Part shown: positions 26,601-29,600 of the stretch, one piece after another
Layout: the number at the start of each line of letters is the position of its first letter
Position numbering within the stretch: position 1 is the first letter of the stretch
Source of the DNA: Escherichia coli
Lineage (GTDB): Bacteria > Pseudomonadota > Gammaproteobacteria > Enterobacterales > Enterobacteriaceae
Length of the DNA stretch: 64,000 bases
Assembly: GCF_024700885.2 (NCBI RefSeq)
Contig: NZ_CP117016.1
Direction: 5' to 3' (one strand)
Position numbers: made by a program

Positions 26601-29600
26601 ATATTATTAAGCATCACCTTTCATTCATTTTTTCATCACAATCTTACAAAATGAGCGTTTTTTGATAGAGCAATTCTGCCAATACTTTATTTTATATTGA
26701 TCAAATTAATACTATGAATAGAGAAAACGGAAGGAGCGTTCTATGCAACTGCAACATGGAAAAAATAATACACAACAATATATATTTGGCGACTTTGTAT
26801 TAAAAAACAATGGAATATTATTATTCAAAAACAAAGAATATCATATTCCACCGAAAGAACTTGGCGTTATCATTCTATTACTTAATGCTGACGGTGAAAT
26901 TGTTAGCAAAGAAGAGATTATCGATAAGGTCTGGAGCGCGAGTGTTGCCAGTGATGAATCTCTAACACGATGTATTTATGCATTGCGCAAACTTTTGCAT
27001 GAGAATAAACAGTGTAAGTATATCGAAACGGTCTATGGTCGTGGATACCGTTTTACTGTACCTATTGTGATTGTGACCGATAATGAACCGGTAAAGTCGA
27101 CCACCACTCTTGCCGTTTTTCCCTTTCGTACCGAAGGTTCGATCAATGTTCTAAAACTCCATTACGAACTTGTCCAGGGCCTTTCAAAATATGCTTTTTG
27201 TGGTTTAGATATTTTACCCGCTTCGGTAACAAATGAGGCCAGTGATTTCTCCACTATCCATCAGTTTATCAATAAAACAGGTCCAGAATATTATATTATG
27301 GGTCAGGTCGTTCACTATGGTAAAAACTGGCGTTTATTTATTGAGTTAATTCATGCCAGAACACATAAATTGATTGATCATCAAAGTATTGATTTCCACC
27401 CCGATAATCCTCTTTCCGTATTATTATCACAAGTAATTAATATTCTTATTGAAAAAATACCCAACATTAATTTTAAATCTATTAATACACAACAAATGCC
27501 ATCTCTGGATTCTGCTGTTATGTATATGAATGGCAGAATGGAAATGTATCGTTATACACCAGAGAGTTTGAAACGAGCATTAGTAATATTTAGAGATTGT
27601 GTGAGTACGCAACCGCAAAATACCTTGCCCTACTGTTGCCTGGCGGAATGCCATATATCATTAGCCCTCCTTGGACTCAGTGAACAAAAACAAGCAATAA
27701 CTACGGCAGTAACCTCCATTGAAAAGGCTCTTGAAATTAACCCTTCAAATTCTCAGGCATTGGGTTTACTGGGTTTAATCAGTGGGCTAAAAGATGAACA
27801 TTCAGTGTCTAATGTGCTATTTAAGCAAGCACATTTACTCAAACCTAATTCGCCAGACGTTTATTATTATCAGTCTCTGCTATGTTTTTTGAACGGTGAT
27901 CTTGCAAGAGCATTTAATCTAATAGAAAAAAGTATTGCTCTTGAACCCAATAAAATGGGTATAAGCATTCTTAAATTAATTATACTTTATTACACATCCC
28001 CCCTCGATAACGCGATATCTTTTGCATTAAATCTTAACAGTCAAAACACCTGTAATAATCCAATTATTACCTCTATTCTGGCTATGTTCATGGCACTGAA
28101 AGGACATAATGACAAAGCCAAAAGTTTATTGCTTAAACTTGAGCCTGAACATGGTCTTGATTACACCTGTGTTAACTCGCTTTATACGAAATTTCTGATC
28201 TATGGCGCATCTATAAAAAATGACATTATGAAGTTACTGGCAAATATTAACACCAACAAAATCAATGGTGTTATTTTGCCGTTGATTTACACTGTGTATG
28301 GTAAAAAAGAATATGAAAAGCGCTGGCAACAATTAATTAAAGACAATGATTTATGGTCAAATGTTTTGCTTCATGACCCCCGTTTGCTCAGTGTAAAAAA
28401 TGAATTTAATACTATCGGTGTGATGCGTACTTCTGCGTAAGAACTAAGATAAATTGCCCTGCATATGCAGGGCAAAAATATAAGTAACATCAGAACTCTT
28501 GCAAACACAATGCGGATGAACGTGACGCTATCGAGAGATGACCATCTCCTGGATAAAATATCATACCGCTGTCGAGCCAATAATGTTCAGAGCGAAATAT
28601 TCCGTCATAAGAAGTCAGATTACCATATTCACCCCATAACGAACCTACTTTTCGCGGGACAGCACCGCTAGTTGCACTCCCCACTATATCCGTACTAGAC
28701 GGTAATCTATAGCCCCTATCACTACAATATGAATTAATTACACTCCATGCTTCCTGAAAATCCCCTTGGGGTAAAAACCATTTCTGCAGTGAGAATCTAT
28801 ATGTGACTTTATTCCCTTTATTGCTTTTCGGCGTTCCTGTAATAGTAATTTCGTTCTTTAGAATATATTCTAAAGTCACCATACCATTACTATCGACCTG
28901 AATACCCTGTATACCGCTGGTCCAATTATAATCCGTGTTTTTCATATTGTGGATTAATATCAGTGTAAATTTAGCACCATCAAACCCTGTTTTTGGAAAA
29001 CCATCTGCCGCCCTGAATTTTGCACCATTAACACTCAGCGACTCGACTTCCACAAAAGGAAGGATGGTATAAGACGGTTGCCCGTCTACATACCAACCAT
29101 TAATATGTAGATATGAGTTTAAGTTTTCTCCTTCTTTGTAGGCCATATAGGTACGCTCATATCTGCCATCACCTACAAATGTCCAACTGGACCAATGTTT
29201 CTTTTCCACATTTTGTAAGTACACTGCATCATCTGTCAGCAAATCCAGACCGTCATTCACAGGATTACCAAATTCATCAGATAATAAAACACTGACAGGT
29301 ATATCCGCCCCAGCTACCACTAAAACTTCGTGTATACGAAGCTGTGAACGAAACTTACTTACTTCACCTCTGTTAATAGTGTAGCTTTTTGAATAATTGG
29401 CATCGACCCAACCCGCCATCTTCAGTTGCGCATTCAAATTCGCTTCCGCAAAATGTGCCATATACTGTCTTTGATATTGCCCATTGCCATTGTATATCCA
29501 ATTATTGCCTTGAATAGAATCAGCGTTCCTGACTTGTACGTTTTCCTCATTAAGCTGAACGACACCATCAGTAATAAAGTTACCCTGGGCATCTTTAAGA

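Follow-up and report, generated by a model that had tools for sequence, protein, structure and literature searches.

The reading frame that separates a translocon operon from a giant adhesin gene in this Escherichia coli chromosome raises two questions: which regulator it encodes, and whether that regulator governs the genes on both sides of it. In the window, by which we mean the whole 64,000-nt stretch of DNA analysed, this ORF is real and it is eilA (Table 1). Both the gene and its co-regulatory role are already known, the regulator having been described in 2006. Taking the evidence jointly, we are highly confident that eilA encodes a HilA-family transcriptional activator of the eip island at selC, under control that is probably two-tier.

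The G+C content around the ORF is 36-38%, and because stop codons are frequent in DNA of this composition, a chance ORF of 565 residues is not plausible. The encoded protein is identical at 561 of 565 positions (99%) to EilA of enteroaggregative E. coli 042 (EC042_RS21315, UniProt D3H2F7), which is of the same length; the substitutions relative to 042, given as 042 residues, are N9T, H219N, N503S and D534E. With the NCBIfam equivalog model NF009037, 'HilA/EilA family virulence transcriptional regulator', it scores 952.3 bits (cut-off 589), with residues 1-552 aligned to profile positions 2-553 (profile length 553). A HilA-like regulator between translocon operon and adhesin, as a sequence-only reading of this DNA had proposed, is borne out by this score and by the identity to 042 EilA. 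The eilA region is present at at least 90% identity in 730 of 5426 complete E. coli genomes (megablast); all of the matches listed are annotated as eilA, and among them the fully identical RefSeq genomes carry the annotation 'HilA family transcriptional regulator EilA'. We met no evidence contradicting the eilA identification. The alternative assignment to ygeH was rejected, as the protein scores 228 bits with the YgeH model (NCBIfam NF008870), below the cut-off of 800, and is 33% identical to 042 YgeH over 423 residues. YgeH, encoded in ETT2, is a HilA-family paralogue found in the same genomes; at 458 residues it lacks the C-terminal ~110 residues of EilA.

The AlphaFold model of EilA (pLDDT 81.8) has three domains. 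The N-terminal region had been taken for an OmpR/ToxR-type DNA-binding domain, and this is confirmed both by a winged helix in the model and by a Pfam match to Trans_reg_C, the OmpR/PhoB-type winged helix, at residues 31-104 (E 8e-16); a receiver domain (Response_reg) was not found in the Pfam search. The description of all the rest as TPR-like holds for residues 255-564 and fails for residues 121-238, which form an alpha/beta domain. At the sequence level the TPR matches are weak (TPR_2 at 371-403, E 0.009; ANAPC3 at 363-425, E 0.005). Sequence matches to solved structures include the DNA-binding domains of PhoB, CadC (5ju7, E 3e-10) and ToxR (7nmb, E 9e-6), whose N-terminal winged helix is of the same type. 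In fold comparison with the PDB, EilA matches TPR superhelices as well as the sensor domain of CadC (3ly9), which resembles the alpha/beta and helical module of EilA. Unlike CadC and ToxR, EilA as modelled lacks a transmembrane segment linking its DNA-binding domain to the sensor-like one, pointing to a soluble cytoplasmic protein. Fold matches in AFDB50 combine a winged helix-turn-helix with TolB-N-like and TPR modules, and one of them is named HilA; their TM-scores are low (0.3-0.5), since the three EilA domains are flexibly arranged, and architecture alone is comparable. Structure prediction thus returned the HilA-like succession of winged helix, alpha/beta and TPR-like domains.

Salmonella SPI-1 HilA belongs to the same NCBIfam HilA/EilA equivalog family and has the same domain order. 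HilA and EilA have been described as sharing '37% similarity' (PMC4210603), and the relation drawn here rests on the NCBIfam model and the literature; no sequence named Salmonella HilA appeared among the EilA relatives found by word-indexed search and in the 50%-identity representatives. The relatives retrieved come from Escherichia, Yersinia, Enterobacter, Providencia, Chromobacterium, Pandoraea, Burkholderia and Pseudomonas. Whereas hilA lies inside SPI-1 beside iagB and prgH, a layout shared by Yersinia and E. fergusonii, where the EilA relatives sit with iagB, prgHIJK and orgAB, eilA occupies a 20-kb fragment that holds only chaperone, translocon and adhesin genes and is far from injectisome genes. 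The upstream HilD/HilC/RtsA tier of Salmonella was not seen at the eilA locus.

Table 1. Features of the eip island, the uhpA-ilvN islet and the EilA protein (window positions unless given as residues).
Feature	Position	Strand	Remarks
eip island (selC-B)	21154-41554		20.4-kb insert between yicS and nepI near selC; absent from K-12
eicA 18-nt box ATGAGCGAATTTTGATAT	21379-21396	+	ends 60 nt before eicA ATG; unchanged in E. albertii and in L011, the second version of the island
eicA	21457-21954	+	SicA/SycD/LcrH-class translocator chaperone; 49% identical to ETT2 chaperone YgeG
eipB	22202-23983	+	SipB/C/D-type translocon/needle-tip homologue (eipBCD)
eipC	23996-25147	+	SipB/C/D-type translocon/needle-tip homologue (eipBCD)
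eipD	25191-26540	+	SipB/C/D-type translocon/needle-tip homologue (eipBCD)
Terminator-like hairpin 3' of eipD	26572-26594	+	dG -14.7 kcal/mol, z -2.8; separates eip operon from eilA
eilA 18-nt box ATGAGCGTTTTTTGATAG	26651-26668	+	ends 74 nt before eilA ATG; conserved in 042, and in E. albertii with one change
Candidate eilA -10 (TATTTT / TATATT)	26688-26698	+	about 20 nt 3' of the box; predicted from sequence
eilA ribosome-binding site GAAGGAG	26730-26736	+	6 nt 5' of ATG; conserved in E. albertii
eilA CDS	26743-28440	+	565 aa; ATG start
Palindrome TTGCCCTGCATATGCAGGGCAA	28454-28475		between the convergent eilA and adhesin stops
Inverse-autotransporter adhesin	28490-41353	-	4287 aa; annotated IatC; 042 allele is EaeX/Air
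Candidate HilA-type site GAATCATCATTTT	41409-41421	-	55 nt before adhesin ATG; putative
Orphan paralogues (two ORFs between uhpA and ilvN)	52806-55773 (52806-54368 and 54478-55773)		box-carrying
EilA winged-helix DNA-binding domain	residues about 11-112		AlphaFold model
EilA alpha/beta domain	residues 121-238		AlphaFold model
EilA TPR-like helical domain	residues 255-564		AlphaFold model; all-helical

The eip island has a G+C content of 35-41% in its T3SS half and of about 60-63% in the adhesin repeat region, where 24.9 copies of a 291-nt unit occupy positions 30642-37900. Within it eilA is linked to SPI-1-type T3SS genes, adjoining those of the SicA, SipB and SipD classes; a 60-aa ORF at 21964-22146 has no NCBIfam match. 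Neighbors, yicS/nepI insertion site and gene order (selC ... yicS, eicA, eipB, eipC, eipD, eilA, adhesin, nepI) are those of 042, with two differences: the P4-like selC-A element found about 11 kb after selC in 042 is absent here, and the IatC allele of the adhesin is 68% identical to EaeX/Air over the last 400 residues, the differences falling mostly in the final ~100. E. albertii carries the same locus, with an EilA that is 76% identical and an inverse-autotransporter gene, and a 57%-identical version at another chromosomal site again combines an inverse autotransporter with chaperone, translocon genes and regulator.

For 042, three reports (PMC4210603; PMC7058095; PMC11068852, reporting Sheikh et al. 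2006, Mol Microbiol 61:338) describe EilA as controlling eipB, eipC, eipD, eicA and the adhesin gene eaeX/air together with eivF and eivA of ETT2, and describe eilA and eaeX mutants as reduced in adherence and biofilm formation. EilA is also described as complementing a Salmonella hilA deletion through activation of invF (PMC4210603); EilA function is also treated in PMC2808357. The suggestion that the regulator is well placed to co-regulate translocon and adhesin therefore has a published counterpart in the 99%-identical 042 protein, for which activation of T3SS promoters and replacement of HilA are likewise published (PMC4210603; PMC7058095). YgeH likewise complements hilA and activates ETT2 operons (PMC4210603). 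The eip island and ETT2 are unlinked, about 1 Mb apart. ETT2 is widespread in extraintestinal lineages, e.g. ST69, and according to reviews its effectors and regulation are still unknown (PMC11068852). In strain 1190, which shows 100% identity to the window both in the eilA region and in the uhpA-ilvN islet, ETT2 is full-length, and its EivF shares a protein accession with the EivF of 042. The YscQ-type ETT2 gene epaO carries a frameshift annotation in this strain as well as in 042, which leaves secretion competence uncertain.

The two ends of eilA were described in the sequence-only reading as an AT-rich promoter region of its own and a palindromic terminator shared with the adhesin gene. The AT-rich intergenic region (26541-26742) is present and opens, directly after the eipD stop, with the terminator-like hairpin, whose outer stem (CTGGTC...GACCAG) is kept in E. 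albertii; no consensus sigma-70-like site was found on its plus strand at the scan threshold. At the 3' end the eilA stop (28438-28440) and the adhesin stop (28490-28492) flank a palindrome with a perfect 9-bp stem (dG -16.8 and -17.1 kcal/mol, z -4.7 and -4.4 on the two strands); the stem is unchanged in E. coli 042 and E. albertii while loop and flanks vary. Only on the minus (adhesin) strand is the stem followed by a T-tract, which makes the element an intrinsic terminator of canonical type for the adhesin gene and a mere hairpin for eilA. The convergent palindrome common to both genes stands, then, but the U-tract serves the adhesin transcript only.

How eilA and its neighbors are wired together is suggested by an 18-nt box, ATGAGCGWWTTTTGATAK, that resembles the InvF and MxiE boxes. 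It precedes eicA and eilA and also the two orphan paralogues between uhpA and ilvN; the window holds 5 boxes where 0.18 are expected, and none of 100 shuffles reached 5. In ETT2 the box occurs once, as an exact copy, 5' of ygeF-ygeG-ygeH, and it was not found 5' of eivF or eprH among the ETT2 promoters scanned. It lies 5' of the hilA-like genes of E. albertii, Y. enterocolitica and E. fergusonii, and in E. albertii also 5' of pentapeptide-repeat, PipB2-like (effector-like) genes, while the second island version has it 5' of the chaperone gene and not 5' of its eilA-like gene. A scan of 100,044 species genomes gave 93 matches against a chance estimate of ~70, and among the 80 listed almost all are noise; E. 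albertii, with three matches in one genome, is the only informative genome among those 80. Two matches in Brenneria adjoin a helicase-like ORF, as read from the translation, and look like chance. The unrelated pattern TCAY-N7-TCATG is not enriched in the window (3 occurrences, 1.6 expected). The two orphan ORFs have no NCBIfam match and no Pfam match at E <= 0.001, and an assignment to EspE3 was rejected, EspE3 being an LRR protein encoded elsewhere.

The core of the box is GCG...TTTTGATA. The MxiE box is GTATCGTTTTTTTAnAG (PMC9769918) and the InvF site is ANNGGNCNTTTTTTNAANGTT (PMC8490769), and by manual count the eilA box agrees with the former at 12 of 16 specified positions and with the latter at 11 of 15. 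Function of the MxiE box is reported to be abolished by the changes G6>C and T10>A (PMC9769918), whose counterparts in the 18-nt box are the G of GCG and a central T. The shared core of the InvF-SicA and MxiE-IpgC boxes and the 18-nt box consists of C-G, a T-rich run and then an A at fixed distance; the 3' half here is TTTTGATAK, and the 5' half reads ATGAGCG where the InvF and MxiE boxes have GTATCG. Both known sites overlap the -35 region (PMC9769918; PMC7595419) and precede translocator or effector genes, and the position of the 18-nt box would fit such an overlap. As read from the sequence, a TGNANT hexamer (TGAAGT, TGCAAT, TGAAAT) lies exactly 20 nt after the box in 3 of 4 promoters, and at eilA TATTTT follows at 19 nt.

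These cis-elements suggest a two-tier cascade with feedback onto eilA, in which the translocon operon would be controlled indirectly, via the InvF/MxiE-type box. In the first tier EilA, together with YgeH, would act on structural and regulator promoters such as that of eivF, and probably on the adhesin promoter. In the second, EivF, an activator of the InvF/MxiE type, would work with a chaperone of the SicA class (EicA or YgeG) on the conserved 18-nt box, which would place eicA-eipBCD, eilA (as positive feedback), ygeF-ygeG-ygeH and the effector-like orphans under EivF and its chaperone. H-NS probably keeps the AT-rich island silent before induction. Box-carrying genomes encode EivF as well as EicA and YgeG. 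In E. coli, however, EivF together with YgeG did not switch on genes that have an MxiE box (PMC9241512), a result that counts against the two-tier reading. That eilA itself may belong to the EivF-chaperone regulon is a tentative proposal, to which we give a little less than an even chance.

A simpler scheme, the one the sequence-only reading had in mind, has EilA bind both flanking promoters directly (eicA, 21156-21456; adhesin, 41354-41554) with no intermediate regulator. The gene does sit between both targets, and the qRT-PCR and fusion data showing EilA-dependence of eip and eaeX, as given in PMC4210603, PMC7058095 and PMC11068852, are equally consistent with direct control. We nevertheless consider this scheme rather unlikely, as the eicA and adhesin promoters have no element in common, the InvF/MxiE-like box being present at eicA only, and as Salmonella HilA reaches the sic/sip genes through InvF-SicA (PMC7595419), with EilA itself activating invF (PMC4210603).

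The adhesin promoter, which lacks the 18-nt box, is probably a first-tier target. HilA boxes are pairs of hexamers separated by 5 nt and located at -54 to -37. In the adhesin promoter we note a candidate HilA-type site, GAATCATCATTTT, and the ETT2 locus has a single further match, 60 nt upstream of eivF; the motif common to the adhesin and eivF promoters, GAATCATCAYTTT, was derived from those same two sequences.

The 18-nt box could also be read as the site of the HilA-like proteins EilA or YgeH rather than of EivF, which would make eilA and ygeH autoregulated and the translocon genes and orphans direct EilA targets. As read from the sequence, the box contains TGA...TGA at 11-bp spacing, an arrangement to which winged helices of the OmpR family could well bind in tandem, and it stands 5' of both E. 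coli hilA-like genes and of hilA-like genes in three other species; moreover, the title of De Keersmaecker et al. 2005 names hilA as a HilA target. Set against this, the eivF and eprH promoters, which head EilA/YgeH-dependent operons, are without the box, its core (C-G, T/A-rich run, GA, A) fits the boxes of the AraC-type activators MxiE and InvF, and the genes that follow it are of the translocator and effector-like kinds that make up the second tier in Salmonella and Shigella; we regard this assignment as unlikely. Still less credible is the reading of eilA as intact but functionally silent in this strain, the remnant of a decaying T3SS shut down by H-NS. In its favor, ETT2 has decayed in many E. 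coli and whether it secretes is disputed (PMC7058095; PMC9241512; PMC11068852), epaO is annotated as frameshifted, and eilA and co-regulated transcripts were at the detection limit in ST69 (PMC7058095). Against it, E. coli and E. albertii share the ORF, its ribosome-binding site, the box and the two hairpins despite 76% protein identity, the region is kept at at least 90% identity in the 730 complete genomes, the eilA promoter is inducible in LB:DMEM (PMC7058095), and PMC4210603 and PMC7058095 describe mutant phenotypes in 042.

The identification of eilA is a rediscovery, reached by reasoning from raw sequence that was sound; what may be of value is the map of cis-elements, in which the 18-nt box is possibly new. 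With a conserved box, direct targets of EilA could be told apart from those of EivF and its chaperone, and the wiring between the eip island and ETT2 would be explained. If functional, the box would mean a secretion-coupled positive feedback onto both HilA-like regulators, and it would provide a sequence tag for finding ETT2 effectors, nominating as candidates first of all the two orphan paralogues between uhpA and ilvN.

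The regulator gene is eilA, which encodes the known HilA-family regulator EilA and lies in the known eip (selC-B) island. The ORF has 565 codons and an ATG start, with a GAAGGAG ribosome-binding site 6 nt upstream, and its product matches the NCBIfam equivalog NF009037 (HilA/EilA family virulence transcriptional regulator) over its full length with 952 bits (cut-off 589), as against only 228 bits for the YgeH model (cut-off 800). The product shares 561 of its 565 residues with EilA of enteroaggregative strain 042. By megablast we found 26541-28500 in 730 of 5426 complete E. coli genomes, and among the matches listed the annotation is always "eilA: HilA family transcriptional regulator EilA", adjoining "iatC: inverse autotransporter adhesin IatC". 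G+C around eilA is 36-38%, compared with ~50% in the flanking core genes. Aligned with K-12, the island is a 20.4-kb insert between yicS and nepI, with borders at 21154 and 41554. The gene order is that of 042 (tRNA-Sec, rhuM remnant, setC, yicL, nlpA, yicS, eicA, a 60-aa ORF, eipB, eipC, eipD, eilA, adhesin gene, nepI), in whose genome eip corresponds to EC042_4007-4012, adjoining selC (PMC2808357). The two differ directly after selC, where 042 carries an 11-kb P4-like "selC-A" element with integrase, AAA ATPase and primase (11704-22730 of its selC region, L002) and the window has the rhuM remnant only. The 60-aa ORF between eicA and eipB, for which the annotation gives a hypothetical protein in identical genomes and a frameshift in 042, had no family match. 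We know of no counterpart to it between sicA and sipB. Between nepI and yicN lies an insert of 840 bp, absent in K-12, with genes for a RelE/ParE-family toxin and an HTH antitoxin.

The ORF and the other elements noted in the sequence-only reading are all found where it had placed them. Pfam assigns Trans_reg_C (OmpR/PhoB-type winged helix) to residues 31-104 (E 8e-16), upholding the proposed N-terminal OmpR/ToxR-type domain, and gives weak TPR matches between residues 312 and 425. A search of the sequence against solved structures returned the DNA-binding domains of CadC, ToxR, SaeR and PhoB, designed TPR proteins matching residues 307-423, and no solved structure of HilA. The AlphaFold2 model, built from an alignment of 42 family members (mean pLDDT 81.8, pTM 0.65), has three domains and no transmembrane segment. 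Its C-terminal helical repeats agree with the earlier description of the remainder of the protein as TPR-like; the modelled alpha/beta middle domain does not, and by this model it is not TPR. Foldseek against AFDB50 found proteins of winged helix, TolB-N-like and TPR architecture, one of them named HilA, with TM-scores of 0.3-0.5 that are expected to be low because the domains are flexibly linked; against the PDB it found TPR superhelices and the CadC periplasmic sensor domain. The sequence-only reading was to be refuted if structure prediction gave no HilA-like fold; model and matches do not refute it. A hairpin directly follows the eipD stop (dG -14.7 kcal/mol), and a perfect palindrome (dG ~-17 kcal/mol on either strand) separates the convergent stops of eilA and the 4287-aa minus-strand ORF. 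Its stem is invariant in 042 and E. albertii while loop and flanks vary. The palindrome had been taken for a terminator shared by both genes; a T-tract follows the stem on the minus strand only, and it is a canonical terminator for the adhesin gene only.

Published work on 042 bears directly on the proposed co-regulation of translocon operon and adhesin by this regulator. As summarised consistently in PMC4210603, PMC7058095 and PMC11068852, Sheikh et al. (2006, Mol Microbiol 61:338) reported reduced adherence to epithelial cells and reduced biofilm in eilA and eaeX mutants, and EilA dependence of eicA, eipB, eipC, eipD and eaeX/air, together with eivF and eivA of ETT2, the unlinked type III secretion locus. 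A Salmonella hilA deletion is complemented by 042 EilA and by 042 YgeH, each through invF (Huttener et al. 2014, PMC4210603). Intact ETT2 and eip loci were found in ST69 bloodstream isolates, and a 500-bp eilA promoter reporter is induced in LB:DMEM (Fox et al. 2020, PMC7058095). The co-regulation hypothesis is therefore correct and was already demonstrated; the earlier observation is confirmed and its interpretation supported, although control of the translocon operon is, from the promoter sequences, probably indirect.

The adhesin gene is an IatC allele with 24.9 copies of a 291-nt repeat, at a G+C of ~60-63% in the repeats versus 35-41% in the adjoining type III secretion half. Relative to 042 EaeX/Air its repeat region is only ~85% identical and its last 400 aa 68%, the final ~100 residues differing most. 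The promoter block that it shares with E. albertii contains GAATCATCATTTT, 55 nt 5' of the ATG. The motif GAATCATCAYTTT, common to the E. coli and E. albertii adhesin promoters (the latter at ~17095-17108, minus strand, of the E. albertii locus L004), has a single match in the 35-kb ETT2 locus of 042 (L009), 60 nt 5' of eivF (31580-31592, minus strand); its distances to the ATGs are similar. TCAT repeats are phased here at 10-11 bp; an identical 14-mer, GGAATCATCACTTT, is common to the E. albertii adhesin promoter and the 042 eivF promoter, and the copy of the motif in strain 1190 has one mismatch. Since eaeX/air and eivF are reported to be EilA-dependent, GAATCATCAYTTT is a candidate site of the HilA type, for EilA, with the weak statistics of an expectation of 0.3-0.5 per single match and a motif derived from the same sequences.

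Alignment of E. coli and E. albertii promoters revealed one sharply conserved block 5' of eicA and one 5' of eilA, both containing the same 18-nt motif (the box). Searching the window with ATGAGCGWWTTTTGATAG and up to 3 mismatches, we found five boxes, ATGAGCGWWTTTTGATAK, where 0.18 are expected, and none of 100 shuffles contained as many. The copy near selC may be a relic of a gene lost at this insertion hotspot. No box was found in the adhesin promoter.

Coordinates of features in the window and of domains in EilA
Feature	Position	Strand	Remark
tRNA-Sec	16879-16973
rhuM remnant	within 16974-17611
Box, one mismatch	17391-17408	-	rhuM remnant/setC, near selC; no obvious downstream gene; kept in K-12 (L003 2733-2750)
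Box	21379-21396	+	ends 60 nt 5' of eicA ATG
eicA	21457-21954
60-aa ORF	21964-22146	+
Hairpin	26572-26594		3' of eipD stop
Box	26651-26668	+	ends 74 nt 5' of eilA ATG
eilA	26743-28440	+
Palindrome	28454-28475
Adhesin gene	28490-41353	-
Adhesin repeats	30642-37900
GAATCATCATTTT	41409-41421	-	adhesin promoter
840-bp insert	42834-43673		nepI/yicN
Toxin and antitoxin genes	42973-43326, 43310-43633
3.3-kb insert	52706-56034		uhpA/ilvN
Orphan ORF	52806-54368	-
Box	54379-54396	-	before ORF 52806-54368
Orphan ORF	54478-55773	-
Box	55984-56001	-	~210 nt before ORF 54478-55773
Winged helix	EilA ~11-112		AlphaFold2 model
Alpha/beta domain	EilA 121-238		AlphaFold2 model
All-helical repeat domain	EilA 255-564		AlphaFold2 model

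K-12 lacks the AT-rich 3.3-kb insert between uhpA and ilvN, which holds two paralogous orphan ORFs (26% identity, E 2e-27), with no NCBIfam match and no Pfam match at E <= 0.001. Of 5426 genomes, 1109 have this islet, often diverged or partial; O157:H7 is among them. A box precedes each ORF, which makes the two candidates for ETT2-regulon or effector genes. Strain 1190 equals the window at 100% both here and at eilA, and has a full-length ETT2 and the same EivF protein accession as 042. The ETT2 locus of 042 contains a single box (L009 9725-9742, plus strand), 5' of the ygeF-like ORF upstream of ygeG and ygeH, as does that of strain 1190; within the locus none was found before eivF or eprH. 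In a scan with a single genome for each species most matches were due to chance, but three boxes are in the E. albertii type strain, NBRC 107761. These exact copies (L013 200-217, L015 6006-6023, L014 8448-8465) precede a 178-aa orphan and two pentapeptide-repeat proteins of 736 and 385 aa, whose similarity to the effectors PipB2 and PipB is weak and sub-threshold.

Clustered at 50%, the EilA family has 66 representatives at E <= 1e-30, with named members in Enterobacter, Providencia, Pandoraea and Burkholderia. Identity to EilA is 76% in E. albertii, 57% in a second Escherichia version, 54% in Yersinia, 51% in E. fergusonii and 37-40% in Chromobacterium. The yicS-to-yicN locus is the same in E. 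albertii, where the inverse autotransporter has 1763 aa, and the 57%-identical version (L011, Logan ERR3329175 contig, 1-11692) combines inverse autotransporter, chaperone, translocon genes and regulator at a different chromosomal site; thus adhesin, translocon and regulator move as one module. The hilA-like gene of Yersinia and E. fergusonii is placed as in SPI-1, with an iagB-like transglycosylase gene after it and prgHIJK-orgAB nearby, and by this analogy the eip island looks like a detached piece of a SPI-1-type system. The hilA-like genes of E. albertii, Y. enterocolitica and E. fergusonii each have a box 75-95 nt upstream, that of E. fergusonii with 3 mismatches; in L011 the box precedes the chaperone gene, not the regulator gene.

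The box resembles the MxiE box GTATCGTTTTTTTAnAG (PMC9769918) and the InvF site ANNGGNCNTTTTTTNAANGTT (quoted in PMC8490769), which are described as overlapping the -35 (PMC9769918 for MxiE; PMC7595419). Three of four promoters have a TGNANT hexamer exactly 20 nt 3' of the box; eilA has TATTTT at 19 nt. On the simplest reading, the box would be the site of EivF, the InvF/MxiE homologue of ETT2, acting with a SicA-class chaperone (EicA or YgeG; EicA and YgeG are 49% identical, EilA and YgeH 33%). Against EivF stands the report that EivF with YgeG gave no activation of MxiE-box genes (PMC9241512). If EivF does act at the box, it would control the eip translocon operon at a second tier, in the manner of sicA-sipBCDA in Salmonella, and this tier would feed back positively on eilA and ygeH. 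Possibly new here are only this conserved, InvF/MxiE-like box and the regulon that it outlines, which we tentatively regard as plausible and which would be of moderate interest if confirmed.
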